Virus record (IMG/VR): IMGVR_UViG_3300025168_000036
Strand: one strand, 5' to 3'
DNA length: 64,000 nt
DNA from: a virus
The stretch's first letter is position 1. Each line of letters opens with the position of its first letter. The notes under the pieces are model-generated. The model did no database searches and had not been told where the DNA came from. It was given only the letters and a program-made list of their open reading frames with translations. Position numbers and translations under genes: made by a program. Of the stretch, positions 1,995-22,114 are shown piece by piece.

Positions 1995-3304
1995 TATAAC
2001 CTCATCATTCCGTAGTCTACATTTCTTTGTTGTATATCACTCCATCCATCCTCTTGATACATTAGCCAAGGGTGGAAAGCATATGCATTTAGCTGGCCAG
2101 CAGCTTGCATCTCTGCATATTGTACATCAATTTGTCTGTTAATGAATCTTGTTGCTTCAAGTAGCTTGTCGTAGGCGGTATCTTTTATAATATAAGCTGA
2201 TGTTGTATATGCAAAATTACATTTTACTATTTTGTCATTTACTCTTGTATATGGCTTTTTGTGATTGCAACCTAAATAGATCATCTCCCAATCTTCTGGT
2301 ATATTACTATAGCCTTCAAAAAACTTTTCAAGCATATTGTCAATAAATACTACATCATCTTCCAATATAAGAATTGACTTTAGGCCCCTTGCCTTTGCCT
2401 CTGATATTATATTAAAATGTGATAGATAGCATCCTACCTCTCCTGAGTTTAAGTTTTGGTGTCTAGCTTGTGTATTGCCATCTACTGCCTCAAACCTTCT
2501 AAAGTTTATAGAAAGATCTTTTAACCTAGACTTTGACCTTATCATTCTATCTGGTCTTGACTTCATATTTACAACATAGGTCTCTTCAAACATGTTATTA
2601 AACTTTTTTGAAAGTTTTGTCTCATTTCTTATGAATGTATCTTTACAAAAGTCAAGCAGCTCATCCTTCTTGGATCTTAACTCAGTCTGTCTACCTTGAT
2701 CATGCTGATCAGACTCAAGAATGAAATTATTATTTGATCTCTTAAGGTTGCCTTTATATTTGTGCTTAAAGTAATAGCTTAACCATAAATCTTCAATAAA
2801 TTTGTACTTATCTGGCAAATTATCAAAAAGTTCGTTTTCGGTAAACACACGAATTGGTAATATCATACCACCAGTACCACAGTAATCGACATCCTCTCCA
2901 GGAGTATCAACTCCTTCCTTATCCCAGTAGGACTCTTTTATTCTATGTGCATAAAATGAAAATATTGTATCTGGTCTATATTCTGATAAGAATGTCTCTA
3001 CCATATCTTCACCAAATTGTACATCATCATCTATAAAAATACATGGGCCTTCGTATTGATCTGTTAGATTCTTTGCAAAATAGAATCTTCCTATTCCTCC
3101 TACATTATCTTTGCTATGGTGAACTTCAATATTATATGATAGCTTATACATTGACACTATTTCATCTAGTTTTTTACTATCATCAGCATTATTATTCCAA
3201 ATATACAAATCGAATTCATGAGTTGTTTGGCCTTCAAGCATTGCAAGAGTTCTAGGTATATTATCTGTCCTCTTCCAATTACACATTATAATTGGTGTCT
3301 TCAT
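1994..3304 (-). CDS. Bifunctional glycosyltransferase (GT2-like N-domain plus GT25 C-domain)
   Basis: N-domain FIDDD and EDLWLS; C-domain VVNMKSRPDR, RFEAVDG, GCYLSH, ILEDD. Confidence 0.8.
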   Translation of the reverse strand: MKTPIIMCNWKRTDNIPRTLAMLEGQTTHEFDLYIWNNNADDSKKLDEIVSMYKLSYNIEVHHSKDNVGGIGRFYFAKNLTDQYEGPCIFIDDDVQFGEDMVETFLSEYRPDTIFSFYAHRIKESYWDKEGVDTPGEDVDYCGTGGMILPIRVFTENELFDNLPDKYKFIEDLWLSYYFKHKYKGNLKRSNNNFILESDQHDQGRQTELRSKKDELLDFCKDTFIRNETKLSKKFNNMFEETYVVNMKSRPDRMIRSKSRLKDLSINFRRFEAVDGNTQARHQNLNSGEVGCYLSHFNIISEAKARGLKSILILEDDVVFIDNMLEKFFEGYSNIPEDWEMIYLGCNHKKPYTRVNDKIVKCNFAYTTSAYIIKDTAYDKLLEATRFINRQIDVQYAEMQAAGQLNAYAFHPWLMYQEDGWSDIQQRNVDYGMMRL

Positions 3305-3951
3305 TTCCTTAATCCCATTTCTCTTTCTTTATTATCATGCCAGTCATTATCACTAACTTGTTTTTCCAGTGTTTTTCTATGATATATTGCATAAAGCTCT
3401 TCCTCTGGTAGTGCTGCGAATGTGTCTTGCCCTATTAGTCTTCCGTGAGGTATTGGATTAAAATGAATACCTTTATTATTTCTGAATAGCCTGTCCTGAA
3501 CATCTGGCCAGTTAACTCTACCTTTTTCATCTAAGACCCAACCTCTTGAAGCTCTATATTCCTCTGTAAGCCCTTCTACAATATTAGTTCTTGGTAGAAA
3601 GAATACATCAACATCATTTGTACTTATTAGATTATGAACTATCATATAGAATCTTTCATCAAGCAATTCATCTGCATCTAAATAGAATAAATAGTCTGTA
3701 TCTGCTTGTGTTGCCAGCCAATTTTTTTGGTCATGAATTGCCTTATCTACAGGCTTTTCAAATGATATAATATCATCCTTATAGCTTTCAATTATATATT
3801 TTGTCTTATTATTTGATCCGTTTGAGTCTCGAACAATATAAACTTTGTCACTAGTGCCTTTTAATTCAGTAATTTGTTTTAATAATTGATTAAGTGATTC
3901 ATCTTCATTCTTACAGAGAATCATGTATCCTATAGTGAGTTCTTTCGCCAT
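3301..3951 (-). CDS. GT2-family glycosyltransferase
   Basis: ILCKNE, LFYLDADE (DxD), WPDVQDRLFRN. Confidence 0.8.
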   Translation of the reverse strand: MAKELTIGYMILCKNEDESLNQLLKQITELKGTSDKVYIVRDSNGSNNKTKYIIESYKDDIISFEKPVDKAIHDQKNWLATQADTDYLFYLDADELLDERFYMIVHNLISTNDVDVFFLPRTNIVEGLTEEYRASRGWVLDEKGRVNWPDVQDRLFRNNKGIHFNPIPHGRLIGQDTFAALPEEELYAIYHRKTLEKQVSDNDWHDNKEREMGLRK

Positions 3952-4412
3952 AATTTTTCTACCTTACTGTTAAATTTATAATCTAATAATTGTATTCCTC
4001 TTAGCTTAGCAGTGAAAAAAGTTCTATAGCTATCACCTAAACCAAAAGTATCTGTCTTATATGTTGCCTTTAATACTGTTTTATAGAAGTTTCTTGGGTC
4101 TGCCTGCATTTGAAGAACTGGTATATCTAATGCCAATATTTCAGGTGTTGTATCTAGTGTTCTTAAACCTACAGATTCAACCCATCTATTAAATGCACTA
4201 TATGATACTTTATCCAATGACATACAATGAGTCTTCTTTAGGTGTTCTGCATTTAGTACAACTAATACTTGCCTCTTACTTGCACCTTCTAGCCCTTTGT
4301 ATCTACACTCAATTAACATACCTCTTTCTAGTTTAGCTATATTTGTTGGGTACTTACCTTGCACTCTAATCAAGTGCTCATTTAATCTACCTTCTACCTT
4401 TTGCTTAGCCAT
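3930..4412 (-). CDS. Hypothetical protein
   Basis: 160-aa ORF overlapping both neighbours in the operon. Confidence 0.6.
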   Translation of the reverse strand: MAKQKVEGRLNEHLIRVQGKYPTNIAKLERGMLIECRYKGLEGASKRQVLVVLNAEHLKKTHCMSLDKVSYSAFNRWVESVGLRTLDTTPEILALDIPVLQMQADPRNFYKTVLKATYKTDTFGLGDSYRTFFTAKLRGIQLLDYKFNSKVEKLWRKNSL

Positions 4413-4866
4413 CGAATTTTATCTCGCCCATTTCATTACATGCCTCTAAGAATCTCTTAAAGTGCTTAGTGTCTTTTGTTTCTAATTTAGACTCATACTT
4501 TAGTGTGCCCTGCGAAGCACTAGAAGCCTCATCTTCTGTTAGCTGAACAATTGGTGTGTATGACCAGCCCCATTTATCCTTGCGCCCCTCAGGATATATC
4601 ATTCCTCTCTCAGTCTGTATAGTTGTTGGGTACCAATATGATTCTCCATCATCAAATCTTAGGTCTTTCATTAATTTTGGCATATTCGATTCATACTTTT
4701 CTATATCAAAGTCTGGGTTCTTTTTATAATTTAACGGATTTTCATTAGTATAGAATCCACTTCCAACACACATCTTTGACACTCCATGTCTATCATCAAG
4801 CTCTTGTATTACATGCTTTTCATTTGTTATTGGGCTTACTACCCATTCAGCTTTGCTATTATCCAT
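4405..4866 (-). CDS. Hypothetical protein
   Basis: 153-aa ORF, translationally coupled to neighbours. Confidence 0.6.
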   Translation of the reverse strand: MDNSKAEWVVSPITNEKHVIQELDDRHGVSKMCVGSGFYTNENPLNYKKNPDFDIEKYESNMPKLMKDLRFDDGESYWYPTTIQTERGMIYPEGRKDKWGWSYTPIVQLTEDEASSASQGTLKYESKLETKDTKHFKRFLEACNEMGEIKFDG

Positions 4867-6119
4867 TATACTTTCTCCAGTTTTGGTATGTTTAACTTAA
4901 TCTTTTTTGCAAACTTTGGAAGATTTGATTCAAGTATTTTATCAAAACTTTTTGTCATTTCATCCAAATTAAAGTCTTCTCTTATTAATCTTGCCTGCTT
5001 TCTTGCATCTGGTATATATGTCTTATAATTCTTAAATACATCTTTTAATATACTTGATGCATAGCCATAATCAACATAAAACCATTTCGAGCCTTTTAAT
5101 ATCATATTATTTGCTGCAGATTTGTCCACTTCCATTAGCTTACCTGGTAGCTTAATTGCATGTGTAGTGAAGTCTACTTGTCCTGACCAATTTGATACAA
5201 TTAGTGGCTTTTGTGTTATACAGAATTCTGCTAGTGGCCTTCCATATCCTTCACCATGAGAAAATGACACCATAGCCTTAATCTTTGGATGATTATATAA
5301 ACCATTCATCTCGTCTTCAGTTAATTTACCTTCAAGAACATATATGTTTGGAGGATTATCATATCCTTCAGTAATTTGTTGTATCTTTTTATCTATTTCG
5401 TTATATTCAAGTATGCTAAATGTTGCACCAGATGTCTTTATTACTAGTGCTGGCCTCTTTGATTTGCCTGTATTCTTAAATGTTTCTAAGAATGTCTTTA
5501 TTGTTCCACCAATATCTTTTCTGTCATGGCCAAACCCTCCTGCAATCCAATGTCCTGTAAATAAGAAGCAAAAGTCTTCATCTATATTGTCTAGGCTATC
5601 TACTATTGTAGCTGGTATCTCAGCCTTGTCAACCTTTCTAAATACATCTGTATCTATTCCTTCAAATAGTACGTCTATTGGAACTTCACACTTAAGCGAG
5701 CCTATAATTTCACCTGTTTGGTCATTTTTTTTATCATATACTGTATCCACAAGAATTTGCCTTGCGTGGTGTGATGGTACGATTACTCTGTCCATTCTAT
5801 TACAGCCATCTATCCACTCGTGAGGTGCCTGTGTTGTTTCTATTCCAGCAGTAATTCCTATATTATATTTTGCAACTTTCTTGAATTCATTAGGTACTGA
5901 TAGCTGCATGAATACATCAATTTGTTGCTTTTGATCTTTAAGTACATACTTTTCAAATTCTGGAAACTTATCATTTGGGCAGTCTCCCCAGTTTGTTGGA
6001 ACACATTTAATATCAAACCTATCCATAGCTATTAAGCTTTTTAATAGATCTCTTGCATGATCTCCATATCCAGATCTTGAAAATATTGGGGCCTGAAAGC
6101 CTATTGTTGTTTTACTCAT
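4866..6119 (-). CDS. GT4 (GT-B) glycosyltransferase
   Basis: SRSGYG, DRKDIG, and E-x7-E motif in GEGYGRPLAE. Confidence 0.85.
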   Translation of the reverse strand: MSKTTIGFQAPIFSRSGYGDHARDLLKSLIAMDRFDIKCVPTNWGDCPNDKFPEFEKYVLKDQKQQIDVFMQLSVPNEFKKVAKYNIGITAGIETTQAPHEWIDGCNRMDRVIVPSHHARQILVDTVYDKKNDQTGEIIGSLKCEVPIDVLFEGIDTDVFRKVDKAEIPATIVDSLDNIDEDFCFLFTGHWIAGGFGHDRKDIGGTIKTFLETFKNTGKSKRPALVIKTSGATFSILEYNEIDKKIQQITEGYDNPPNIYVLEGKLTEDEMNGLYNHPKIKAMVSFSHGEGYGRPLAEFCITQKPLIVSNWSGQVDFTTHAIKLPGKLMEVDKSAANNMILKGSKWFYVDYGYASSILKDVFKNYKTYIPDARKQARLIREDFNLDEMTKSFDKILESNLPKFAKKIKLNIPKLEKV

Positions 6120-7537
6120 CTTATAACTCCCGTAGGGTATTTTATTAATTTATTATTTGTTTTTCTTTTTAGTGTAAATATTTTTCTAGGCTTAAATGAA
6201 TTAAGACAAATATCAATAGAGTTAGATACGCCATCTGCCATTGCTTGCGCAGTAAAATTATTTGCTAAGGCCCATTCTCTACCTTTTGTTCCAGCTGAAG
6301 ATCTTTCATCTTTGCTTAATGAATATACACTATTTATTGCATTTGTTATATCACTTACACTAACTCTACTATCATAAATATAAGGTGTTACTGGTGAACC
6401 TACCAAGTTTATTTGTGGCCACATTGGAAATGCCCATTCACCATGTTCTTTATATCTACCATTACTATTACTTGGCCAAGATTCTGTATAGTCATTTACT
6501 GTTAGGTCATTACCTTTTTCATTCTTAAAGCCCATCTGGTCCTGCAGGCCACCTATACAGCTTGCAATAATTGGTGTTCCTGACATTATTGATTCCATTA
6601 CACTAAGACCAAATCCTTCAGCTGAGCTTGGTTGACAGGTTACATCTGAAAGATTGTATAGATAATTTAGCTGATTTGATGGTATCTTTCCACTTGAGAA
6701 TATAACATTTGCTTTAGGAGCTAATGCTTTAACTACTGCAGGGAGATCTGTTCCATTTTGATCTATTGGATCTGTATGTAGTATTAGAAATGCATTTTGC
6801 CTTTCAGCCTCAGTCTCTAGTGAATCAACAAATGTTTTATATGCTAGTATTAAATCTTGTGGTCTCTTTCTTTGTATATTTCTGCTATTAAATAGTAAAA
6901 CAAAAGAATCATCACTTAGTTGTGGGAAATATTTATCCTTAAATTCAATTAAGCCCTTATCAGATTTGTCAAGTGGCTTAAATACCTTTTCATCAACTCC
7001 ATGTGGTACATATGTTAAATCTACACCTTCTTTTCTCGGATTCTTTTGGCATACATGCTTATTTATATTATATGTTTGTTTTGATATTGCAATTAGTGAA
7101 TCACAACAGTCATAGAATGGCTCATTCCAATGAGGAAAAGGAAGGTCATCCCATATATTATAGTACATAATAGGAGTAGTTTGTCTTAATTCATGCTCCA
7201 TTTGATATAGCCAACCCCAAAACCTTGGGTCTGTAAAGTGTATTATTGCATCAGGCTTCTCGATTGATAATATCTGCTGTAATATTTGCTTGTTTCCATA
7301 ACCATCTACTGGATATAACTTAAGATAGAAGTTATCAACACCGCTATCCCTTTTTACATCCTCATTTTTACTTAAGTCAACTACATTACCTTTATCTGGT
7401 GATTGTAGTGCACCTGCTATCTGTACCCAGTCATATTTATCTAAAGACTTTAGTACTATTTCTTTACTCATTGTGCCAACACCAGACGGTAGCCTAATAT
7501 CATCACCTAATAAGAGTATCTTCTTCTTTTTTGTCAT
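6116..7537 (-). CDS. GT4 (GT-B) glycosyltransferase
   Basis: PSGVG, VPHGVD, RNIQRKR, AEGFGLSVME, GGLQD. Confidence 0.85.
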   Translation of the reverse strand: MTKKKKILLLGDDIRLPSGVGTMSKEIVLKSLDKYDWVQIAGALQSPDKGNVVDLSKNEDVKRDSGVDNFYLKLYPVDGYGNKQILQQILSIEKPDAIIHFTDPRFWGWLYQMEHELRQTTPIMYYNIWDDLPFPHWNEPFYDCCDSLIAISKQTYNINKHVCQKNPRKEGVDLTYVPHGVDEKVFKPLDKSDKGLIEFKDKYFPQLSDDSFVLLFNSRNIQRKRPQDLILAYKTFVDSLETEAERQNAFLILHTDPIDQNGTDLPAVVKALAPKANVIFSSGKIPSNQLNYLYNLSDVTCQPSSAEGFGLSVMESIMSGTPIIASCIGGLQDQMGFKNEKGNDLTVNDYTESWPSNSNGRYKEHGEWAFPMWPQINLVGSPVTPYIYDSRVSVSDITNAINSVYSLSKDERSSAGTKGREWALANNFTAQAMADGVSNSIDICLNSFKPRKIFTLKRKTNNKLIKYPTGVIR

Positions 7538-7551
7538 AACCTTTTCCCTAA

Positions 7552-7722
7552 TTATTTATTAAATTTGCTTCTAAACTCTTTGTCTTTAATATACATTTCC
7601 AAAGTTAAATTAACTAACTTTTGAAAAGTAATACCTTCCTTAATACTAAGAATTTTGAACTCCTTGTGAATGTTTTTATCTACGTTCACAGATGTTAACC
7701 TTTTTTTGTGTCTATCCATCAT
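7552..7722 (-). CDS. Small ribbon-helix-helix-like DNA-binding protein (56 aa, below ORF-track cutoff)
   Basis: Hand translation MMDRHKKRLTSVNVDKNIHKEFKILSIKEGITFQKLVNLTLEMYIKDKEFRSKFNK; beta strand, helix, G-x-T turn, helix; GGAGG upstream. Confidence 0.65.
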   Translation of the reverse strand: MMDRHKKRLTSVNVDKNIHKEFKILSIKEGITFQKLVNLTLEMYIKDKEFRSKFNK

Positions 7723-7758
7723 AACCTCCAATTATATTTGTATATAAATATATATTCA

Positions 7759-8160
7759 TTATGAAATAATTACGACTTTCTTATTATTTTTTTTAGCTTC
7801 TGTGAGTGCATGGTTAGTTCCTCTTGCCTCGTTTCCAGTTGCTACAAATCCTATAACTACATCACAATACTTTGCTAACATAACATTTCTTATAAAGAAG
7901 TGCTTTGTATTATATTGCTTTCCGTAATATTTCTCGTTAAGTGCTGAATAAAAATTGTAGACAGTATGTGCCGGATTAAATTCAACATATTTACAGTTAA
8001 ATTCTAGTGCAAACTTCTTTGCATACCTGTCTGCACCATCTTTGCATCCGCCACTAACAATTGTTAACTTTGACCCGAACTTTTTCTGTAAGTTAAAAAT
8101 TGTGTCCTTAACCTTCTTTCTATTTTCGTATTGCCTACTTCCTATTATTCCTACTTTCAT
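7759..8160 (-). CDS. SLOG-superfamily (YspA/DUF2493-like) protein
   Basis: VGIIGSR, IVSGGCKDGAD, IRN, RGT. Confidence 0.75.
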   Translation of the reverse strand: MKVGIIGSRQYENRKKVKDTIFNLQKKFGSKLTIVSGGCKDGADRYAKKFALEFNCKYVEFNPAHTVYNFYSALNEKYYGKQYNTKHFFIRNVMLAKYCDVVIGFVATGNEARGTNHALTEAKKNNKKVVIIS

Positions 8161-8387
8161 TTTCTATTCTTATTTCTATTTGGTCTATATATATACCATG
8201 CCCTTTCGTGAAAATAGTATAATATCATTTTTGTAAAGAGCTCAAGTCCTCCCACCTTTAGCCCAACAATTGGGTCTCCTGTAATTAGCCAACCTAATGC
8301 CATTGTGTCCAATGTTCCTATAGCTCTCCACGTAATAGTTTTAACTATGTGCCTTTTTCTTGCTGGCCAACTATTTCTTACAATCAC
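8157..8387 (-). CDS. DUF2061-like small membrane protein
   Basis: RHIVKTITWR...TKMILYYFHERAW. Confidence 0.8.
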   Translation of the reverse strand: MIVRNSWPARKRHIVKTITWRAIGTLDTMALGWLITGDPIVGLKVGGLELFTKMILYYFHERAWYIYRPNRNKNRK

Positions 8388-8737
8388 AAGGAACCCTCCT
8401 TTCTCATTTGAGCTCTAATCTTTGTTGCTGAAATTTGTTCAACTTGATTAGGTGGTACGTGTTCTATAACTTCATATCCTACACCTCTACCATAATTTAC
8501 TGATTCTATGTCTGGAACTATTGTTATTTTTATTCTACCTTCATCTATTAAGCCTTTTAGCTCACTACTTAGATTTGTTAGAACCTCATGTGGTGTCCAA
8601 GGTTGATTTTCATTTGGTTTAACATCTCTTATTGCTATCCATACATTCTTACCTTCATTAAGCCTTTGATCTATTAACCATCGGTGTCCTTTGTGCCAAG
8701 GCTGCCACCTTCCTATAAACATTGAGTACTTTTTCAT
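8384..8737 (-). CDS. Small HIGH-motif nucleotidyltransferase (cytidylyltransferase-like)
   Basis: FIGRWQPWHKGH (HxGH) and C-terminal ISATKIR. Confidence 0.8.
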   Translation of the reverse strand: MKKYSMFIGRWQPWHKGHRWLIDQRLNEGKNVWIAIRDVKPNENQPWTPHEVLTNLSSELKGLIDEGRIKITIVPDIESVNYGRGVGYEVIEHVPPNQVEQISATKIRAQMRKEGSL

Positions 8738-9495
8738 ATCCCTTTATCCCTTTTTACATTTATTGCTATTGCTCTTTTGCCAGACTTATTTGGGTCCATA
8801 TCATTTATAATATATCTAGGGCCTCTTTCAATACCCATAATTAATTTATCATATGGGATTCCACTTTTTGTTAGCTCACCTATCGTAAGCCCCTTTAATG
8901 TCTCTGGTCTAGCAGTTGTTAATATTATCATATGGCCATCATCATACCATTCATTTAACTTATCCACTGTTGCCTTTATTGGTTCTGCATCTGTAGATTC
9001 ATATGTTTCAAATTTTCTGTACTTAAATATTGTTCCATCAATGTCGCAGAAGTATGTATTTTTCTTCTTTCTATTAAATTCAATACCTTCAAGGCACTCA
9101 TCAAGTGTCGGAGAGCCTGTTGTATCAATATCTATAAAGTGCTCTATTGGCTTTTCATAATCTTGTGCAAAATATTTCTCTCTTCCCCTTATATCAGTTG
9201 TGTGTACATATATCTCAGTGACATCATTTGTCTCTTTTAATTCATCTCTCATATCTCTATAAGGTGCAACTACTGACACTACTGGTGTAAACCCTTTATT
9301 GTCTAGGAATCTACAAAGGTCTAGTACTGACCTTATATTCTTTCTCCTACCTTCTGGACTATAATTAAAATTTTGAAATAGATCCCTTAATCCATCTCCA
9401 TCTATGTGAATACAATTATCACTACATCTATCTATAAGTGCTTTTGCTAATGTTGTCTTTCCAGCTCCTGGCTGGCCTGTAAACCAATATATCAT
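8734..9495 (-). CDS. cysC: Adenylylsulfate (APS) kinase fused to a HAD phosphatase
   Basis: WFTGQPGAGKTT, IDGDGLR, VAPY, YEKP (APS kinase); DIDGT and TTARP (HAD). Confidence 0.8.
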   Translation of the reverse strand: MIYWFTGQPGAGKTTLAKALIDRCSDNCIHIDGDGLRDLFQNFNYSPEGRRKNIRSVLDLCRFLDNKGFTPVVSVVAPYRDMRDELKETNDVTEIYVHTTDIRGREKYFAQDYEKPIEHFIDIDTTGSPTLDECLEGIEFNRKKKNTYFCDIDGTIFKYRKFETYESTDAEPIKATVDKLNEWYDDGHMIILTTARPETLKGLTIGELTKSGIPYDKLIMGIERGPRYIINDMDPNKSGKRAIAINVKRDKGI

Positions 9496-13487: not shown

Positions 13488-13780
13488 TATTTTGTCTCCT
13501 TATAAATTGTTAAAATTTCATCTTCTCTACATACGATGAACTCTTCTCTATTAACTTCAAGTCTTTTAGCTGAAAATTTTGGATAGTATACTACATCGCC
13601 TACCTTACATTGCATATGACCTCTTTTTCCAGTATTTAGTAGTGGGCCGGGACCTACTGCTAATACTTCGCCTTTAAGTGATACTTCTGCATCAACTTCT
13701 GGCATAATTACTCCACCTGATGTCATTTCATCTGGTTCTAATCCTTTTAATACTACATTTCCTCCTGTTGGTGTAAACAT
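13487..13780 (-). CDS. groES: Co-chaperonin GroES
   Basis: TSGGVIMP mobile loop, GEVLAVGPG, KVGDVV, REDEIL. Confidence 0.92.
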   Translation of the reverse strand: MFTPTGGNVVLKGLEPDEMTSGGVIMPEVDAEVSLKGEVLAVGPGPLLNTGKRGHMQCKVGDVVYYPKFSAKRLEVNREEFIVCREDEILTIYKETK

Positions 13781-14499
13781 TATATTGCCTCCTTATCTTT
13801 AATTCTTAATTTATTTTCTATTTCATGTGAGCTTCTTACACATGATATTCCTAATTGGTCTTTCATTACTTCTGGTGTTGTGCAAGACTGGTTAAAGCTT
13901 GCAAAATCTGTTTTACTTGGGAACCTTCCACAACCTGCAAATAGACACCCAAATGCATTTGATAAATAATCTGCAGCTGCGTAGTCACACTTTCCTATTA
14001 AGTCACATCCTGGCTTGAAGCTTTTTGCAGCTTCAATTCCCATATCGATCATCTTCTCTCTTAATAGCCAATGTAAACCTACAATAAACTCTTCCTCGCA
14101 AAACTTAAGCCTTCTCATCATCTGTCCTCTAAGAGAATTAATATTTTGCTCAACTACGTATGTACATTCTCTTGACATTAAATTAAACAATTCAGGATTT
14201 TCGCTTTCAGATACTCTGTGCTTTTCCAGTTCAGATAGCGTTTTTATGGTTTTGTCGCGAAAGTCTGAGTTCTTCTCCATTAACTCATATACCTGAGTAT
14301 AAACCACATATGTTGGGTTTGGATTAACCTCATATTGCTTAAATTTAATTCCTACTCTAGCCCTTGAATGTTGATCATATTGGCAAATTGGTGTCCCTTT
14401 TACTCTATATGTTATCATACCAGAAGCCTGATGCCAATTCAAAATGTCTACTTCTAGACCTTTCACTCCACACTTTATTTCAATGTTATTAACTTTCAT
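13780..14499 (-). CDS. Divergent ThyX-fold protein B
   Basis: ITYRVKG..DQHSRARVG (RHR-like), NINSLRGQMMRRL, C-terminal PGC...GKC. Confidence 0.55.
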   Translation of the reverse strand: MKVNNIEIKCGVKGLEVDILNWHQASGMITYRVKGTPICQYDQHSRARVGIKFKQYEVNPNPTYVVYTQVYELMEKNSDFRDKTIKTLSELEKHRVSESENPELFNLMSRECTYVVEQNINSLRGQMMRRLKFCEEEFIVGLHWLLREKMIDMGIEAAKSFKPGCDLIGKCDYAAADYLSNAFGCLFAGCGRFPSKTDFASFNQSCTTPEVMKDQLGISCVRSSHEIENKLRIKDKEAI

Positions 14500-15307
14500 A
14501 AAATAATTCTTTATCCTTTTTGCTTAAATCTTCAAATTTATATTCTCTTATCTTATGTAATACAACATCTGTATTTTCAAATATTACACTCAGATATAAA
14601 CCTATAAATGGGAATTGTTTTTCAACAACACTTACAAGTTCTTTATAGAGTATTGCCAATGACTGCTCTTTTACATTATCACCAAACTTTCCTGATGCAT
14701 TGAATCCTCTCATTGATACTAATGAAAGTAAATTTTGGCCAAAATGATATGAGTGTTGATAGCTTTGTGGTAAGAATGTTCTACCAGACTGCCAACTTGA
14801 TTGATCTTCATTTAATACATCTGCATATATTTGCTTTAAGTCATTAAATGTTTTCTTTTCTTCTGATGATAGTTTTCTTTTGCCTACAGTAATAATGTCT
14901 ACATCAGACTTATTATTGTCTCTGCATCCTATACTCATAAAACTTGTGAATGGGGTCTGAGTGTGGTAGTCAAATAGCCATCTTGGTACACCTCTTACTC
15001 TGAATATAAATTGTACCATTTCTCTTGCTTGTGGTAGTGTATTGTGAGTCAATACAGCTTTTACAACCTCAAACTTACCTTCAGGAGTTGTTTCTGGCCA
15101 TTTTTGCTTAAACTTATTGTCACCCCAAGTAGAAGTACTTGTCACAAACATTGACTTATAAGGATTTGTCATGTGGTCTTCTAATGTGACCTCAACCTCA
15201 TCAATCATATCGTGAAATTCAGTAACAACTGGTGGCCTCTCTTCTGGGAGAGTTCCCATAACTTTTCTTAGGTTTTCTACAACCTCGTAACTTAATTTAT
15301 CTTCCAT
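14489..15307 (-). CDS. Divergent ThyX-fold protein A
   Basis: AREMVQFIFRVRGVPR, SFMSIGCRD, GRTFLPQ, NLLSL, KQFP; the RHR motif is lost. Confidence 0.65.
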   Translation of the reverse strand: MEDKLSYEVVENLRKVMGTLPEERPPVVTEFHDMIDEVEVTLEDHMTNPYKSMFVTSTSTWGDNKFKQKWPETTPEGKFEVVKAVLTHNTLPQAREMVQFIFRVRGVPRWLFDYHTQTPFTSFMSIGCRDNNKSDVDIITVGKRKLSSEEKKTFNDLKQIYADVLNEDQSSWQSGRTFLPQSYQHSYHFGQNLLSLVSMRGFNASGKFGDNVKEQSLAILYKELVSVVEKQFPFIGLYLSVIFENTDVVLHKIREYKFEDLSKKDKELFYES

Positions 15308-15343
15308 AATTTTATATAACCTTTATAATATAATAAATATCTC

Positions 15344-16300
15344 TTAAATATAAAAATGTAACGAATCAAATTTTATATTTATTTTAATATTTTCTACTTT
15401 AGTATTTTTATCAAACCAGATTTTTATCATTTTGCATATAGATATAAAGTCATGGTTAAATAGCCCTACGTTTGAGGACCTAAAGTTTACACTTACATTT
15501 AATGTATTATTTCTAAGTAGAATATGAACATATGACAGGCACTCATCATCTGTAAATACAAATCTTCTACTATGTGAGTCTTCCTTCTTTCCATAGTATC
15601 CTGATAGCTCTGATTCTATCTTTTTTGTGAATTTAGCTAATTGGAATTTATAACTGTCAACTTCAAGCTGCATATAGTCATTTATATTCTCCAACCCTGT
15701 ATATAGATCTTTTGATGCCCAACTTTCCACATCGTCATAAGACATATCTAAATCCATCTTATAATTTATAAGCTCCTTAGTACCACCAACACTAGCTCCG
15801 TATTCCTGTAATGCAGTCATTGCTGTTCCTATTTGGTGCTCTGGGCTTAATAAAAATTCATTATACATTTCTATAATGCCATTAATTCTTTTTGCAATAG
15901 ATCCTGGATCATCCTCTCCATCTATTACCCAAAAGTTTCTATGCTTTTCAAATCTAATGCATAGATCTTTATATATTCTTGCCACATGCTTTATTGACGA
16001 CCAAGACTGGAATTCATCTCCCCTATTACAATATCTCCTATGCAACTCTGCCTCACTAATGTCAAAATAGAAAACTATATTGTCATTAAGATAAGATATA
16101 AACTCATGTTCTCTTTCTTCATTATTGTCGAATCTGTTATGTAGCATGCCGTAAGCCATTATTGACATCAAGCCTCTATCGTTTAAGAGGACGTCATAGT
16201 CGTTGCCAGATTGTATAATTTCCCAAACCTTTTGGTATTGAGTTGTCTTACCTGAACAGTCAGGTCCTTCAAATATCAATTGTAGTCTTTTATTCATCAT
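15344..16300 (-). CDS. dNMP (thymidylate-kinase-like) kinase fused to a minimal ThyA/dCMP-hydroxymethylase-like domain
   Basis: EGPDCSGKTT and NDR (kinase); SRR, ECLSY, FRSSN, HDF, SLHFY (TS fold). Start is 16300 or 16297. Confidence 0.7.
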   Translation of the reverse strand: MMNKRLQLIFEGPDCSGKTTQYQKVWEIIQSGNDYDVLLNDRGLMSIMAYGMLHNRFDNNEEREHEFISYLNDNIVFYFDISEAELHRRYCNRGDEFQSWSSIKHVARIYKDLCIRFEKHRNFWVIDGEDDPGSIAKRINGIIEMYNEFLLSPEHQIGTAMTALQEYGASVGGTKELINYKMDLDMSYDDVESWASKDLYTGLENINDYMQLEVDSYKFQLAKFTKKIESELSGYYGKKEDSHSRRFVFTDDECLSYVHILLRNNTLNVSVNFRSSNVGLFNHDFISICKMIKIWFDKNTKVENIKINIKFDSLHFYI

Positions 16301-18536
16301 TAAACCTTTCATAAATTTTATTTAAGAACATTGTCTCACTATCTTTAAATCTACCAAGAGATATTAGCACCAATTCACCAGGTTCTATTTCCTCAAAACC
16401 TTTCATCTTATTCTGCCATATAAAGAAGTCTATTGAGCCATTGTCATCTTTTAGTGTTGCAATACCCATAGGCTTACCAGAAGACTTACTTCTTTTTGCA
16501 ATATATTTATCTACTATACCTATAATATAACAACCCATCTTGTCACCAAGTTTCATCCTTACTTCACTTGGTAGCATTGTATTTTGAAACTTAAAGTCTC
16601 TTTCTGTAAGTATTTGTACCATCTCTTTAATAGTGTCATTTATAAGATACTTTACATTAGTAGACATTGCACCATATTCAAGTTCTTTTAACTCTGTAAA
16701 GTTAAACTTTTTATCTTCATAGTCAGGTTGCTTTTTCTTTGGTAGCCTACCTTTATGAAATTGATTATAAGTATCCACCTCCTCATCCCATGAATCAAAT
16801 GCACCTGCAAATATTAAGTTTTCAACCTTTGACTTATTTTTAATTTCAGATCTGTCCAAGAAGTCCTGGAAGCTATTATATGGTGCGTGATTTAGTATTA
16901 GCTCCACATCACTAGGTGAAACAGTCTTAATTGCATCAAAGCCAAATAGTATACTTTTATCAACTATTGTAAATCCTTTTTGAGATGCATTTATATTTGC
17001 ACGTTCAACTTTAAAGCCTAGTTTCTTTGCAACATTAATGTGCTTCATCATATCAGTTCCTGGTTCAGAGTTGTCAAGCATAACCTTCATATATTCAATT
17101 GGGTAATTTGCCTTAAAGTATCCACCCCAATAAGATATTAATGAATAAGATACAGAATGGGCTTGATTAAAGCCATAGGCTGCAAATGCAGCACACTTTT
17201 CAAATAGATCCATTGCATCTGATTCCTTGATATGAACTGATAAGCCTTTGATAAACTTTTCCTTGTATAGACCAATATTCTTTTGCCTTTGCTCCATTGA
17301 TTCCCAGTCACGGTACTTAACTAATACCTTTCTAAACTTATTTGATTCTGAATCTGTAAACCCTGCAATAAGTGCCAGTTTCATAATTTGTTCTTGATAG
17401 GTAATAATTCCATATGTTTCTTCTAGGACTGTGTTAAGTGGTTCTGGCCACCTTTCGTACTCACCTGAATGTTTACGTTTGGCATACTCAGTTGGCATAC
17501 CTTCCATAAGTGGGCCAGGTCTTAATAGTGCAGAAACTGCTGATAGTTCAGCAACTGAGTCTGCCTTAACATCTTTTAAGATACCTTTTGCTGTGCCTGA
17601 TTCAAATTGAAATATTGTATCAGTATCTGATGTGTGGAATATTTTCTTAAATGTATATTCATCATCTAGTGGAATGTCACCTAGTTTTAGATTAAGTCCA
17701 TGCCTTTTATTAACAAGGTCCATAGTTGCACCTACTATTGATACATTTTTAAGGCCAAGTATATCAAACTTTACATATCCCATATGCTTAAGGCCGTAAG
17801 TTCCAGTACCTTCCTCCCATGCTGATGATATACCATCACCAATTTTATTTAGTGCAATATTTTCATCTAAGTTTTCAGATGATATAATAACACCAGCTGG
17901 ATGTGTTCCGTAATTCCTAAGCATACCTCTAATCTTTTCTGCATAGAATTTAACCTTGGGGTATTTTGTAAAGTATTGTTTTAGTTTGTCAAAGTCATTA
18001 GCAAGTTCATCAAATGTTTTCTTTTCAGTTGACTCACCAGCCATGATAGTCTTTGTCATACCGAATGTATCCTTTGCAGGGACACCTAATGCACCAGCAA
18101 CATCTTGTATAATTGCCCTTGTTTTTGCAAGCTGATATACACCAATTTGTTTTACCTTTTCTCTACCAAACCTTTCATAGATGTAATTAATGACCTTTTG
18201 CCTTCCATGCCTACATACATCTTGATCAATATCAACAAGATCGACATCACCATCAGTTATAATCTCTGGCTTTTTATTTGTTTCAATGGGGTTTTCCTCA
18301 TAAATATCCAACAGCCAGTACAACAGACTATTTTGTTTATTACCTGGCAATTTCTTGCCTTTATTTTCGGTTATAAACGCCTGAATCTGCTTGTACTGGT
18401 CTGGATATCGTGCCTGGTAAAAATCGATTGCATCACACTCTTGTTGTAGCCAAGCAATATGCTCATCAAGACCTCTTTCCCTAAGGACCTTTGATGCATT
18501 CGTAAATATTTTATCTCCAATTAGTATCTTACTCAT
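16290..18536 (-). CDS. dnaE: DNA polymerase III alpha (family C), catalytic/C-terminal subunit
   Basis: DIDQD, HPAGVIIS, KFDILGL, FQFES, LRPGP, YQEQIM, YGFNQAHS, C-terminal OB fold. Confidence 0.92.
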   Translation of the reverse strand: MSKILIGDKIFTNASKVLRERGLDEHIAWLQQECDAIDFYQARYPDQYKQIQAFITENKGKKLPGNKQNSLLYWLLDIYEENPIETNKKPEIITDGDVDLVDIDQDVCRHGRQKVINYIYERFGREKVKQIGVYQLAKTRAIIQDVAGALGVPAKDTFGMTKTIMAGESTEKKTFDELANDFDKLKQYFTKYPKVKFYAEKIRGMLRNYGTHPAGVIISSENLDENIALNKIGDGISSAWEEGTGTYGLKHMGYVKFDILGLKNVSIVGATMDLVNKRHGLNLKLGDIPLDDEYTFKKIFHTSDTDTIFQFESGTAKGILKDVKADSVAELSAVSALLRPGPLMEGMPTEYAKRKHSGEYERWPEPLNTVLEETYGIITYQEQIMKLALIAGFTDSESNKFRKVLVKYRDWESMEQRQKNIGLYKEKFIKGLSVHIKESDAMDLFEKCAAFAAYGFNQAHSVSYSLISYWGGYFKANYPIEYMKVMLDNSEPGTDMMKHINVAKKLGFKVERANINASQKGFTIVDKSILFGFDAIKTVSPSDVELILNHAPYNSFQDFLDRSEIKNKSKVENLIFAGAFDSWDEEVDTYNQFHKGRLPKKKQPDYEDKKFNFTELKELEYGAMSTNVKYLINDTIKEMVQILTERDFKFQNTMLPSEVRMKLGDKMGCYIIGIVDKYIAKRSKSSGKPMGIATLKDDNGSIDFFIWQNKMKGFEEIEPGELVLISLGRFKDSETMFLNKIYERFNDE

Positions 18537-18537
18537 A

Positions 18538-19821
18538 TTATATCATTTTTGGGAATGAAGCTTTATCTCTACCTAGGTCTAAGAACCTCTCAAAGATTAA
18601 ACCCCAATCTAGTGGATTGACTTCTGTTAAGCCTAGCACAAATGCAATTAGGCTTCCTGCAACTGAACCTCTACCAGGTCCAATATATATCTTTTCTTTA
18701 TTACAATATTGTATTATGTCCTCAAGTATAAGAAAGTATCCAATGTAATTCATTTTACGTAATACTGAATATTCATATCTTATCCTATCTTTTACCTCAT
18801 CTGATATATCATTGCCAAATCTGTACTTAAGTCCATGTTTTATCTTTTCTTGAAATATGACTTGTTCATCATCATATAATTTTGGAAGCTTTACATCGGC
18901 ATCAAAGTTTGTGTCTTGAACAAGGTCAAGTATTTTGTGACAGTTATTTGCCGATTCAATAAATACATCTTCAGTAAACCACTCATTGCAGTGGTGCTTT
19001 TTCCAAGATGCATGCATTTCGTCATAGTTTTTATAATAAAGTTCTCTGGCATGATAACCTTTTAAGTTTTCACAATCAGTAATACCATCCTTATTAGATC
19101 TATCTCTAATTGTTATTAGCATGTCATGAACTTCCTGATCATCATAGCGAATATAGTGAGCGTCATTGGTCACAACTGTTTCTATATCAAGTTCTTTTGC
19201 AATCTGAACAAGTTGTTTATTACAATCAATTTGTTCTTGCATCTGATGTACTTGTAGTTCTATAAAGTATTTGTCGCCAAATCTGTCCTTATATCTTTTG
19301 GCCACACTTTTGGCCTGTTCGTAGTCACCATTCATTAAATGAAACGGTATTTCACCACCTAGACATGCAGAAGTGATTACAAGACCCTCACCATATTTAC
19401 TAAGCATTTCAAAATCTGTTCTTGGTTTAGAATAGAAGCCATTCATGTGGGCATCATTATTAATTCTAATTAGATTTTTTATTCCTTTATTATTATATGC
19501 TAAGACAAGAAGGTGAAAATACTTTCTGTATTTTTGTTTGTTTTCATCTATCTGCCTATCACCCTCAGACATAAATCTGTGATTGTTAACATATAGTTCA
19601 CAACCAAACACAGGAGTAATACCCTCTTGTCTAGCATACTTCCATAACCTGGCCCAGGATGAGATCACACCGTGATCAGTAATTGCTAAGTGACTTAAAT
19701 TGTTCTCCTTGCCGAAGTCAATAAGTTCCTGCAACTTTGAAAGTGCATCTCTGGTTGAAAATTCACTATGGCAATGTATTTGTACGAAGCCATTCTTAAC
19801 ATCTTTCCTGGGTTTTATCAT
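18538..19821 (-). CDS. dnaE: DNA polymerase III alpha, N-terminal PHP subunit
   Basis: HCHSEFS..D, AITDHG, GCE, HLLVLA, TNDAHY, GPGRGSVAGSL, FERFL. Confidence 0.92.
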   Translation of the reverse strand: MIKPRKDVKNGFVQIHCHSEFSTRDALSKLQELIDFGKENNLSHLAITDHGVISSWARLWKYARQEGITPVFGCELYVNNHRFMSEGDRQIDENKQKYRKYFHLLVLAYNNKGIKNLIRINNDAHMNGFYSKPRTDFEMLSKYGEGLVITSACLGGEIPFHLMNGDYEQAKSVAKRYKDRFGDKYFIELQVHQMQEQIDCNKQLVQIAKELDIETVVTNDAHYIRYDDQEVHDMLITIRDRSNKDGITDCENLKGYHARELYYKNYDEMHASWKKHHCNEWFTEDVFIESANNCHKILDLVQDTNFDADVKLPKLYDDEQVIFQEKIKHGLKYRFGNDISDEVKDRIRYEYSVLRKMNYIGYFLILEDIIQYCNKEKIYIGPGRGSVAGSLIAFVLGLTEVNPLDWGLIFERFLDLGRDKASFPKMI

Positions 19822-19825
19822 AGTA

Positions 19826-19893
19826 CTAATATAACAATTTTTATTGAAGTAAAAAAACTTTTTACGTATTATTTTTGAAAGTTATTAACAATT
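19826..19893 (-). repeat. Dispersed promoter-associated repeat, copy B (more diverged), directly upstream of dnaE-N
   Basis: TAATATAACAA...AAAAAAA...TACGTATTATTTTTGAAAGTTATTAACAATT on + strand. Confidence 0.7.
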
Positions 19894-20242
19894 ACATGCA
19901 ATGGTTCATCCACTTTCCGTAAAACTTAAGGTATTCTTTTTCCAGTCTGCCAAACGTTAGTGTCTTATAGTGCACACTTTCTAGCTTATCATTTGGGAGG
20001 TGTGTTGAAAGATAGTTATCTATTAAATTTTGCAAACCTTTTATATCATGATACTGTATGAGATTAGTGGGAAAGCAAAACATGAACTCTTTTGTGCCGT
20101 CTTCTCTATTTAGTATATAGCTCCAAAAGTCATCTATATATAATCTTGAATCTATATTACTCTCTACTTGTGATTCCCAAAATTTAATCTCAGCCTTTGC
20201 AGCTGGATTTTCATAGAAGCAGGTTGTTAATTTTACTTTCAT
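19892..20242 (-). CDS. Hypothetical protein within the nucleotide cassette
   Basis: 116-aa ORF overlapping the dNTPase-HAD gene. Confidence 0.55.
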   Translation of the reverse strand: MKVKLTTCFYENPAAKAEIKFWESQVESNIDSRLYIDDFWSYILNREDGTKEFMFCFPTNLIQYHDIKGLQNLIDNYLSTHLPNDKLESVHYKTLTFGRLEKEYLKFYGKWMNHCM

Positions 20243-21143
20243 GTTTTATACCTTTATTTAGTTTTCTATCTAGTGTCTCTTCTGTATATAAGCCAAAGTT
20301 TGGCTTTAAGTATACTTCAAATCCACTATCATTTAATTTATTTGCATTATTTATATCATCATCTATACAAAATGCAACCTGTTCGGGGTCAAAGTTATTT
20401 ATAATATACTTTTCCTTCTCTTCATCAAACACAATTGCATCATAGCATATACCATTGTCCTTAAGCCACTTAATTGTGTCTGAATATATTCTAAAATACT
20501 TTTTATATGGCCTTGCGGTAAGAAGTACAACACTATATTTCTTGCATGCGTCTTTCATAAACTGCTTTGCACCATCTAGCACATCTAATGTTGCTTTTAC
20601 ACCACATGTTCTATATTCAGATTTTATTCTATATTGTTCTTTTTTATCAACTTCTGATTTGAATTGACTTAGACTTTCATAGCCAGACCACTTTAAGAAT
20701 CCACCTGGCCAATCTGCAAGTACACCATCTATATCTATAAAAGCAATCTTTTTATCAGATGCCTTAATCTTTTTCATTACCTTTTCTTGGTTAAATTTAG
20801 CCTCTACAACTCTTGATTTGTCCATAAACTTTTCATATAAGTCATCTACACTAAAGCCATTAAGTTGAATTATTCCAAATAGATATTTTAATACATCAAC
20901 ACATTCCTCTAATACATTATCATTTACATCTTCAGTCTTTTTTGATGTGTGCATCTTCCAATCTATTTCATCTAGTACTTCATATACTTCCTTAGATAAT
21001 GCTAGAACATATTCTTTATTCCATTTTATCTTTAATTCCTTATCATTAACGACATCATCTATTGTAAGATTGTGTTTATCTTTAAAGAACTTCTCTGTAA
21101 AGCTCTTTTGTAATTCGAAAATTTCTTTTAATTTATCTTTCAT
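20211..21143 (-). CDS. All-alpha dNTP pyrophosphatase (dimeric dUTPase/T4 gp56-like) fused to HAD 5'(3')-deoxyribonucleotidase
   Basis: EVYEVLDEIDWKMH...EECVD; then DIDGVLAD, LTARP, IDDD. Start 21143 gives an ATGA overlap with the upstream stop. Confidence 0.8.
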   Translation of the reverse strand: MKDKLKEIFELQKSFTEKFFKDKHNLTIDDVVNDKELKIKWNKEYVLALSKEVYEVLDEIDWKMHTSKKTEDVNDNVLEECVDVLKYLFGIIQLNGFSVDDLYEKFMDKSRVVEAKFNQEKVMKKIKASDKKIAFIDIDGVLADWPGGFLKWSGYESLSQFKSEVDKKEQYRIKSEYRTCGVKATLDVLDGAKQFMKDACKKYSVVLLTARPYKKYFRIYSDTIKWLKDNGICYDAIVFDEEKEKYIINNFDPEQVAFCIDDDINNANKLNDSGFEVYLKPNFGLYTEETLDRKLNKGIKHESKINNLLL

Positions 21144-22099
21144 CTTAATTCCTTTGTCCATCCTAGAACTCTATCTAGTACCTCATTTGCCTTTACCTTA
21201 TGATTCCATTGTGCGAATCTACCTAACATATATATTTTGTCTATCTTATCTAGATTAATACTATTTTGAATTTGGAATGGCAAGCCTTCAAATTTATGTA
21301 TTATAGGATAAGGTGGAGTTATTGGCTCCACAGACTCATATACCATATAATTATTAAAGTATGTCTTTCTTGACCAGCCTTCTGTGTGACCATAAATATA
21401 GTCAAACTTGGATAGCTCACCTTTATTTGTCTGGTAGAAACATTTTGGTAGTGTTGTAAGATCATATTTATCTAGCTCATCTCCATCCCATATTGAACCA
21501 AGTGGAGATTCCTTAGTAAGAAGCTTTAGATTAAGTGTGTTTATAACAACATTATAGCTTCTACACATTGAAGGTCCTGCACCATCCTTTGCATATATGT
21601 ATCCGTGTGAGTCTACCTTTGTAATTCTTTCTCTTTTAAGCTGACCTCTATCAATATCAATTATTTTTAATAGTGTTTCAAATAAGAATTTATAGCTATC
21701 CTCACCCATGTCTTCTATTTCTAGGTGCTGTATTTCATTCTTGCCTTCAGATAGGTAGCTTGACTCAGACTTACTTTTTCCTCTAGTAAGTTTTGTATAC
21801 TTATTCTTAAAACCTGGAGGTAGGACTACGTCTCTTTTTCCATCTTCCTCATACCCAACAATTGCTACAACTGTTTTTATTCTATATGAATGCAAACCTG
21901 CATCATTTAATACACTTCTAACGAATTTTTCTGAATTTTCTGTTTTTTGGATTAATCTAGGTCCTGGAATAAACGGTAAATTTAACTGGCCTAGTGGATT
22001 TTCATCATAAACAGCATATTCTGGAAAGTAGTATCCAGCTATTAAACCTGCCGGACCTCCACCTAATATACAACCTTGTTTCATTTTATTTTCTTTCAT
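21140..22099 (-). CDS. FAD-dependent Rossmann enzyme (UDP-galactopyranose mutase/HemY-like fold)
   Basis: ILGGGPAGL at the N-terminus; LGRFAQWNH near the C-terminus. Confidence 0.7.
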   Translation of the reverse strand: MKENKMKQGCILGGGPAGLIAGYYFPEYAVYDENPLGQLNLPFIPGPRLIQKTENSEKFVRSVLNDAGLHSYRIKTVVAIVGYEEDGKRDVVLPPGFKNKYTKLTRGKSKSESSYLSEGKNEIQHLEIEDMGEDSYKFLFETLLKIIDIDRGQLKRERITKVDSHGYIYAKDGAGPSMCRSYNVVINTLNLKLLTKESPLGSIWDGDELDKYDLTTLPKCFYQTNKGELSKFDYIYGHTEGWSRKTYFNNYMVYESVEPITPPYPIIHKFEGLPFQIQNSINLDKIDKIYMLGRFAQWNHKVKANEVLDRVLGWTKELR

Positions 22100-22102
22100 A
22101 CT

Positions 22103-22114
22103 TTAATATAACAA
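22103..22114 (-). promoter_or_regulatory. Putative early/middle promoter element TT(G/A)TTATATT(A/T), representative copy heading the nucleotide cassette
   Basis: Same element, always just upstream of a gene, at 1194, 10413, 15325, 19826, 22103, 30612, 31658, 32057, 35807, 55476, 55925 and 63326. Confidence 0.7.

Follow-up and report, generated by a model that had tools for sequence, protein, structure and literature searches.

A candidate cytosine-replacement cassette with a minimal ThyA fold and a ThyX-like pair in an uncultured phage

Do eight contiguous genes of an uncultured phage encode the replacement of a canonical pyrimidine in its DNA and, if so, of which one? The genes lie in a 64,000-nucleotide stretch of DNA (the window) of the IMG/VR virus record IMGVR_UViG_3300025168_000036. 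A first-pass annotation had read them as a pyrimidine-remodelling cassette with its own split DnaE polymerase. They encode a flavoprotein, a nucleoside triphosphate (NTP) pyrophosphatase fused to a HAD phosphatase, a conserved 116-aa protein, two pieces of DnaE, a kinase (K) fused to a ThyA-like domain (T), and two ThyX-like proteins, XA and XB (Table 1). We consider that the cassette is best explained by a T4- or RB69-style system that replaces dC ahead of replication, 5-hydroxy-dC being the most likely substitute, and in which the XA/XB pair supplies dTMP; we give this explanation an even chance of being correct. We infer its steps from gene content, predicted folds, conserved catalytic residues and synteny.

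The kinase-T fusion

The central evidence comes from the 322-aa fusion protein, whose AlphaFold2 (AF2) model has a predicted local distance difference test (pLDDT) score of 92. Its T domain (residues 155-322) adopts a compact, minimal ThyA fold with a Foldseek probability of 1.00. The top two matches, 9iqu and 9iqc, are both the dCMP hydroxylase AfhB of phage HY126, the latter solved with dCMP and FAD, and they are followed by ThyA thymidylate synthases and T4 dCMP hydroxymethylase. Searched against the whole PDB, a T-domain profile retrieves two enzymes only, T4 dCMP hydroxymethylase at E 1.5e-4 and AfhB at E 3e-3, with the SRR, catalytic Cys, R-S-x-N/D, specificity Asp and SAH-Y motifs of the profile alignments all in register. 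The domain also aligns with the experimentally verified RB69 gp48 (hhalign probability 91%, E 1.2e-6), and the top BFVD matches of the fusion model are viral thymidylate synthases and dCMP hydroxymethylases.

The catalytic Cys and the residues that bind phosphate (R126/R127 and R166/S167) are conserved. In this phage the T domain reads SRR, Cys258, RSSN, Asp288 and SLHFY; Asp288 aligns with D179 of T4 and with the corresponding Asp of AfhB—i.e. with the Asn177 position in the E. coli ThyA numbering used here for this domain—and RSSN, which has Asn where Asp169 would stand, corresponds to RSQN in AfhB and in RB69 gp48 and to RSND in the T4 enzyme. We aligned 44 diverse representatives of the fusion family (22-57% identity), drawn from 133 clusters at 50% identity. 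The Cys146 position is kept in 41/44, R166 and S167 in 42/44 each, and R127 in 35/44, while 43 of the 44 have Asp at position 177. Position 169 is more variable across this wider family (N in 26/44, D in 13/44), and the syntenic modules have RSQN, RSSN or RSMN almost throughout.

In ThyA homologues, the Asn177Asp substitution marks the use of dCMP, i.e. of cytosine and not uracil, and Asp169Asn is diagnostic of flavin-dependent 5-hydroxy-dCMP synthases, as validated on nine further homologues (Lee et al. NAR 2026, PMC13326640). Since every verified 5-hydroxy-dCMP synthase has Asn at this position and T has it too, 5-hydroxy-dCMP, formed with a flavin and O2, is the most likely product of T. 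The first-pass annotation had named a cytosine derivative as the probable target, and the catalytic Cys, the near-universal Asp at the Asn177 position and the fused or adjacent dedicated kinase all support this. T itself is a distant, minimal relative of the 5-hydroxy-dCMP synthases and not their orthologue.

The K domain (residues 8-154 in the structure comparison) resembles dTMP kinases, deoxynucleoside kinases and B. subtilis YorR, with Z scores of 13-14; in this comparison (VIA) the matches of the whole fusion model were all to the kinase domain and gave nothing on T. The K-domain profile matches YorR with an E value of 5e-17, and RB69 gp45 is matched with an hhalign probability of 91%. 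On these likenesses, K is a candidate dedicated kinase for a modified deoxynucleoside monophosphate (dNMP). JGI annotates members of the fusion family as thymidylate kinase.

In BFVD, the fusion model also aligns, over 330-390 columns, with proteins of 358-482 aa labeled "dTMP kinase" from phiKZ-like jumbo phages (Noxifer and Psa21); kinase-ThyA fusions may thus exist in cultured jumbo phages.

The cassette in this and related genomes

Whether the genes co-occur in other genomes had been named beforehand as a refuting test, and we find that they travel together. Among 28 related loci that have 9 kb or more of flanking sequence upstream and XA identity down to 47%, the module recurs in all 28, with the counts for each gene given in Table 1. 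K and T are fused or adjacent in 27/28. In most of these loci a short-chain dehydrogenase/reductase (SDR) of the nucleoside diphosphate (NDP)-sugar kind, 336-355 aa long and of the RmlD/dehydratase/epimerase type (L019, L021 and L026; e.g. L019:5041-6048), stands between K and T; it can be classed only broadly, as an NDP-sugar reductase, dehydratase or epimerase. It is missing solely from the four loci of this phage's clade, which are those with K and T fused, and this exact match suggests that the fusion arose by deletion of the SDR.

All eight open reading frames (ORFs) are present on the minus strand between cysK (Pfam PALP, E 7e-68) and groES (Pfam Cpn10, E 2e-22), and the description of them as mostly translationally coupled is fair, since at five junctions the neighboring genes either share 1-32 nt or stand one base apart. 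The family assignments made for them from the sequence alone likewise held in every case when examined with Pfam, PHROGs, AF2 with Foldseek, and structure comparison.

Table 1. Features of the cassette and its surroundings in the window, with the number of related loci holding each gene.
Feature	Position	Strand	Loci (of 28)	Remarks
Promoter-like TTGTTATATTA	22104-22114	-		exact 11-mer; 3' end 4 nt ahead of the first-gene ATG
Flavoprotein, 319 aa, UDP-galactopyranose-mutase-like	21140-22099	-	28/28	Rossmann type; GGGPAG motif, profile match
NTP pyrophosphatase-HAD phosphatase fusion, 316 aa	20211-21161	-	28/28	Pfam, PHROGs
Conserved protein, 116 aa	19892-20242	-	26/28	homologues in related loci
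Promoter-like TTGTTATATTA, second copy	19827-19837	-		exact; precedes DnaE-N
DnaE N-terminal piece (DnaE-N), 427 aa	18538-19821	-	26/28 (DnaE)	Pfam, PHROGs
DnaE C-terminal piece (DnaE-C), 748 aa	16290-18536	-	26/28 (DnaE)	Pfam, PHROGs
TTGTTATATTA copy	16523	-		exact; inside 3' end of DnaE-C, 211 nt before kinase-fusion start
Kinase-T fusion, 322 aa	15344-16312	-		AF2 model, Foldseek
K domain, fusion residues 1-154	15851-16312	-	28/28	TMK/YorR-like P-loop nucleotide kinase
NDP-sugar SDR between K and T			24/28
T domain, fusion residues 155-322	15344-15850	-	27/28	minimal ThyA fold
One-mismatch variant TTATTATATTA	15326-15336	-		precedes XA
XA, ThyX-like subunit, 272 aa	14489-15307	-		weak Pfam Thy1
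XB, ThyX-fold subunit, 239 aa	13780-14499	-	28/28	AF2 model, structure comparison
Possible accessory block (membership uncertain)	1236-9495	-		Pfam
TTGTTATATTA copy	1195	-

The pyrophosphatase-HAD fusion consists of an all-alpha NTP pyrophosphatase (residues 10-132) and an NT5C-like HAD domain (residues 139-251). In Pfam, dUTPase_2 (28.4 bits) and MazG (23.2 bits) exceed the cut-off and NT5C (22.4 bits) falls just short of it; PHROGs agree. In 8/28 loci a separate canonical trimeric dUTPase stands beside the retained all-alpha pyrophosphatase; because both are kept together, the latter is probably not merely a dUTPase. The gene of the 116-aa protein follows the pyrophosphatase-HAD gene wherever it is present, and its product has no match in Pfam, PHROGs or the Atlas.

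The 319-aa flavoprotein has a GGGPAG (GxGxxG) dinucleotide-binding motif, and a profile of 17 homologues matches eukaryote-type UDP-galactopyranose mutases (UGMs) with an E value of 2e-4, over residues 146-247 only (about 100 residues). Members are about 310-319 aa long vs 380-510 aa for UGMs; the protein has no Pfam match, and in the Atlas it falls in viral hypothetical clusters only.

DnaE-N comprises the PHP domain (Pfam PHP, 5.5e-40) and the start of the pol III alpha domain, and matches phrog_405 over positions 40-440. DnaE-C, in another frame and starting 1 nt past the DnaE-N stop codon, opens with an extension of about 95 aa ahead of the catalytic DxD region and holds the palm, fingers, HhH and OB domains by Pfam (phrog_405 positions 415-1051). 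PHP, palm, fingers, HhH and OB thus all follow in order across the two pieces. The split is kept in three independent contigs of the same clade, and DnaE is unsplit (1097-1284 aa) in all relatives outside it. We rejected a split of the intein type, because the pieces total about 1175 aa, within the length of the unsplit proteins, and the extension is too small. DnaE-C has only distant matches in cultured phages, below 32% identity. The DnaE gene lies between T and XA in most lineages and elsewhere in others.

Apart from DnaE, the genome has one polymerase-like gene, a truncated 344-aa PolA-like ORF (window 34766-35800, genome 96421-97455) with weak family A polymerase matches, to the palm and fingers only (40 bits summed). 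DnaE is the sole replicative-type polymerase found, and since it is unsplit elsewhere and sometimes encoded outside the module, we read it as the general replicase and not as a dedicated second polymerase. As such, the idea that the cassette brings its own dedicated DnaE does not stand.

The window corresponds, in reverse complement, to positions 68221-132220 of the 145,441-bp record, which has 97-bp terminal repeats, a GC content of about 33-34% and nearly every gene on the same strand. Upstream of the cassette, in the direction of transcription, lie genes for CysK, both ribonucleotide reductase (RNR) subunits, a DnaB-type helicase, a 5'-3' exonuclease and RecA, and downstream of it those for GroES and GroEL; these neighbors place the cassette in the replication and nucleotide-metabolism region. 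DNA and protein searches found no close relative of the cassette, the kinase fusion or XA in cultured phages. Homologues of the cassette come from marine and other metagenomes, Tara among them, and the hosts are probably marine Bacteroidota.

Promoter-like motifs had been noted at 22103, 19826 and 15325. We find exact copies of TTGTTATATTA for the first two and a one-mismatch variant for the third, which we regard as putative promoters. No obvious Shine-Dalgarno sequence stands beside the copies ahead of the first gene and DnaE-N. A further exact copy, which falls within the 3' end of DnaE-C, may serve as an internal promoter. The window as a whole has 15 matches to TTGTTATATTA, a modest enrichment over the 7.0 +/- 2.6 expected.

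Two related modules have other neighbors. In a 391-kb jumbo phage of IMG/VR (loci L013 and L043), the module has no DnaE gene within it, and beside it lie genes for a PARP-like protein, an RNA ligase, a Fapy-DNA glycosylase and a histone-deacetylase-like protein. In a distant lineage (L011; 3259-3837, 412-897), the module adds a protein of the uracil-DNA glycosylase (UDG) superfamily, an S-adenosylmethionine (SAM) methyltransferase and a dCMP deaminase.

The XA/XB pair and thymidylate supply

The last two genes of the cassette had been described as degenerate ThyX paralogs. Their ThyX lineage stands; they read better, however, as one heteromeric enzyme than as two base-remodelling enzymes. XA matches Pfam Thy1 over profile positions 2-161 of 191 with an E value of 2.6e-4 and 21.2 bits, vs a cut-off of 24.8, and many members of its family have precomputed PF02511 matches. 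The XA family profile finds no solved structure at E below 1. For XB, a scan of 26 family members with Pfam gave no Thy1 match. The assignment comes from its AF2 model (pLDDT 83.5), which matches every ThyX and PolB entry with Z scores of 10-14.9, the next match being at 4.3. An hhalign comparison of XA with XB gives a probability of 0.5%; the case for a common ancestor is thus one of fold and motif position and not of sequence.

Neither chain has the complete RHRxxSxxxxSxR motif. XA has DYH in place of RHR and keeps S.GCR, with what we take, mapping by eye, to be the equivalents of R74, S88 and R90 (T. maritima ThyX numbering). XB keeps Q..R.R (DQHSRAR) and lacks SxR; by the same mapping and in the same numbering, it presumably retains the equivalents of Q75, R78 and R80. 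XB differs from typical ThyX in two other respects: eight invariant or near-invariant cysteines (C39, C112, C134, C165, C171, C185, C190 and C206), which may form a metal or iron-sulfur site, and an extra segment modeled with low confidence (residues 174-203).

The two families are highly conserved, with 115 or 140 clusters at 90% identity, and their genes are adjacent in 41/41 loci. Modeled together, XA and XB form a predicted complex with an interaction prediction score from aligned errors (ipSAE) of 0.72 in three runs, vs 0.00 for the best of three controls; 58 of 80 solved complexes score that high, as do 2 of 110 mismatched pairs. Between runs, 77% or more of the contacts agree, with a partner pLDDT of 82 or above. 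The predicted interface is formed by XA residues 108-116, 129 and 173-182 and XB residues 38-46 and 103-109—i.e. by both degenerate motifs. Because solved ThyX homotetramers exist, the score may partly reflect likeness to them.

The genome has no ThyA and no further ThyX. It does encode a dCMP deaminase (outside the window) as well as both RNR subunits, which leaves XA/XB as the sole candidate consumer of dUMP. Taken with the predicted complex, this indicates that XA and XB are probably one heteromeric ThyX and the phage's only thymidylate synthase. To our knowledge no heteromeric ThyX has been described, a literature search on the point having been uninformative.

Proposed pathway, rival explanations and known systems

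In the replacement of dC that we favor, the all-alpha pyrophosphatase would hydrolyse dCTP, and possibly dUTP, to the monophosphate. The T-domain cysteine would then attack C6 of dCMP and a C5 substituent would be installed, with 5-hydroxymethyl- or 5-methyl-dCMP less likely as the product than 5-hydroxy-dCMP. The fused K domain would phosphorylate the modified dNMP, which host kinases would refuse, a host NDP kinase would complete the triphosphate, and the phage DnaE replicase would incorporate it. Meanwhile, dTMP would be made through dCMP deaminase and the XA/XB heteromer, in which two degenerate motifs would rebuild one active site. In the weakest step, the UGM-like flavoprotein may supply an NDP-sugar for glycosylation of the hydroxyl by GT4-type transferases encoded downstream, to which the SDR between K and T may contribute in the relatives.

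The possible accessory block that encodes these transferases includes a P-loop kinase-HAD fusion, a cytidylyltransferase-like protein, an SLOG (YAcAr) protein, two GT4-like proteins, a GT2, a GT2+GT25 protein and a GT11 of the fucosyltransferase family. The series SLOG-GT-GT-u153-u160, of which the last two are small ORFs, is found again downstream in about 10 related loci, among them the more distant L052, and a link of the block to DNA glycosylation is possible.

Several findings weigh against this pathway. T has only 168 aa, vs 217-246 aa in the characterized enzymes and about 220-265 aa in the full-length ThyA architecture that Pfam recognizes. The 322-aa protein has no PF00303 (ThyA) match, which appears, weakly, in only 1/33 family members. 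By overall profile score T is no nearer the hydroxylases than the hydroxymethylases, so the 5-hydroxy call depends on one residue. The pyrophosphatase domain shows no specific likeness to RB69 gp56 (hhalign 3%) and the HAD domain only a generic HAD likeness to RB69 gp51 (7%); moreover, the HAD partner of the pyrophosphatase is of the nucleotidase type and would squander dCMP if this were its substrate. On the side of glycosylation, the SDR is absent from this very clade, and the glycosyltransferase block lies 6-12 kb downstream, includes the lipopolysaccharide (LPS)-type GT25 and the GT11, and does not appear in the DNA flanking the most distant loci. Finally, palindromes counted on both strands of the whole genome, against a maximal-order Markov expectation, reveal a deficit of CATG (observed/expected ratio (O/E) 0.61, z -13), of GATC (O/E 0.71, z -8.8) and of several 6-mers that contain C. 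Such avoidance of C-containing sites would be unexpected if all cytosines bore a bulky protective group, and it lowers our confidence in full hypermodification. TTTAAA is also under-represented (O/E 0.27, z -11), and the rarity of CATG, GATC and TTTAAA points to past selection by restriction systems of these specificities.

Part of this evidence would suit an ordinary supply of deoxynucleoside triphosphates (dNTPs), in which the pyrophosphatase acts as a dUTPase, K as a dTMP kinase and XA/XB as a thymidylate synthase, while T is a degenerate regulatory or substrate-binding remnant and the virion DNA is canonical. We regard this as possible though doubtful. It is in keeping with the setting of the cassette among RNR, helicase, RecA and DnaE genes, with the JGI annotation and the nearness of K to dTMP kinases, with the avoidance of C-containing palindromes, as in unmodified phages, and with a T domain that is truncated and invisible to Pfam. 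However, a remnant would not retain Cys, R166, S167, Asp177 and His207 in 40-43 of the 44 representatives at their level of divergence, and Asp at position 177 denotes cytosine and not uracil. The trimeric dUTPase held by some relatives in addition to the pyrophosphatase, and the same kinase-ThyA pairing in the proven 5-hydroxycytosine (5hoC) clusters, also argue against it. If cytosine is the target, its derivative could instead be an undescribed one, made by a minimal ThyA enzyme that current family databases lack, with XA/XB a repurposed flavoenzyme that provides reduced flavin to T or makes a second modified pyrimidine. We think this unlikely; were it true, many uncultured marine phages, including the 391-kb jumbo phage, would have an undescribed, possibly doubly modified DNA chemistry.

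The remaining alternatives move the chemistry away from dCMP. Remodelling on the thymine side, where the ThyX-like heteromer would make a C5-modified dUMP (e.g. 5-hydroxymethyl-dUMP), the pyrophosphatase-HAD fusion would remove dTTP and dTMP and K-T would be secondary, seems improbable to us. Phages of the PBS2 or phi-e type are the paradigm for the removal of dTTP and dTMP, and a fusion of NTPase with 5'-nucleotidase would suit the irreversible exclusion of a canonical nucleotide. The incomplete motif in both XA and XB, the family profile without a solved ThyX at E<1, the eight XB cysteines, unexpected in ThyX, and a genome without a canonical thymidylate synthase could be read in the same direction. 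Jointly, however, the two subunits retain equivalents of most residues of the dUMP- and FAD-binding motif, and since these complementary residues face each other in the predicted complex, a conserved reaction fits better than a new one. A genome so poor in GC would also need a large supply of dTTP, and no downstream enzymes of the 5-hydroxymethyluracil (hmU) type were seen. Least probable of all, and in our view very unlikely, is a role outside DNA precursors, with T modifying CMP or a cytidine metabolite, as MilA does for mildiomycin, toward a nucleoside-sugar compound or the remodelling of host glycans. ThyA-fold CMP hydroxymethylases do exist, the module combines a UGM-like protein and an NDP-sugar SDR with no glycosyltransferase in its conserved core, and the downstream transferases include GT25 of the LPS type and GT11. 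Against this, the module is embedded in, and often interrupted by, the replicase gene, RNR, dCMP deaminase and dUTPase genes flank it in many lineages, and the fused kinase is of the dNMP/dTMP-kinase type.

The closest known system is one that makes 5-hydroxy-dC. The first-pass annotation had found the combination of genes unlike any described pathway. It does, however, parallel the 5hoC pathway published in 2025-26 for RB69, DLP3, HY126 and RL38JI, whose clusters place a YorR/TMK-like kinase beside the ThyA homologue and also encode a dCTPase, a HAD phosphatase, DNA glycosyltransferases and NDP-sugar enzymes; that of RL38JI includes a UDP-galactopyranose mutase (Lee et al. NAR 2026, PMC13326640). 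Common to both are the ThyA-fold enzyme with its catalytic Cys, Asp177 and Asn169 (PMC13326640), the adjoining YorR/TMK-like kinase, the nearby all-alpha NTP pyrophosphatase, the HAD phosphatase and the GT4-type transferases, and, with the RL38JI cluster, the UGM-like flavoprotein. The differences are that T is here about 70 residues shorter, has no Pfam match and is alike at the profile level only; that T is fused to the kinase and the pyrophosphatase to HAD; that there is no arabinose-5-phosphate isomerase, AfhE-type bifunctional enzyme or U32 protein; and that the replicase is DnaE and not a family B polymerase.

So far, 5hoC is known from a few cultured families of coliphages, Acinetobacter phages and Rhizobium phages. 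If our explanation is correct, DNA with a 5-substituted cytosine, most likely 5-hydroxycytosine, reaches a broad set of uncultured marine phages, which bears on sequencing bias, restriction-based methods and studies of host defence. At about 165 residues, T would be the most compact catalytic core known in the thymidylate synthase superfamily; it is missed by Pfam and could join the annotation pipelines that screen viromes for modified DNA. XA/XB would be the first heteromeric ThyX, i.e. a homomer split into subunits with complementary halves of the active site.

The logic is also that of T4 (gp42, gp1, gp56, cd and td): depletion of dCTP, C5 modification of dCMP by a ThyA-family enzyme, a phage kinase for the product, and dTMP made through dCMP deaminase and thymidylate synthase. 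T4 gp42 is the best sequence-profile match of the T domain, but it has Asp at position 169 and uses folate. The kinase is gp1 in T4 and TMK/YorR-like here, and ThyA of T4 is replaced by a ThyX-like heteromer. With ThyX, a homotetramer, and the ThyX-fold UMP/dUMP methylase PolB, XB has its fold in common (Z up to 14.9) and XA its weak Thy1 match, and the conserved residues of both fall in the ThyX motif region. Unlike in ThyX, there are two unlike subunits, always encoded side by side and each with half of RHRxxSxxxxSxR, and XB adds the conserved cysteines and the extra low-confidence segment. The Z-genome cluster (PurZ, DatZ, MazZ and DpoZ) similarly groups a base-synthesis enzyme, dNTP-clearing hydrolases and a polymerase gene; its target, however, is a purine, its enzymes belong to unrelated families, and DpoZ is a specialized PolA, whereas DnaE here is the general replicase. 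Set against these systems, what is new here is the minimal T domain and the predicted split-motif ThyX heteromer; the base system itself is not categorically new.

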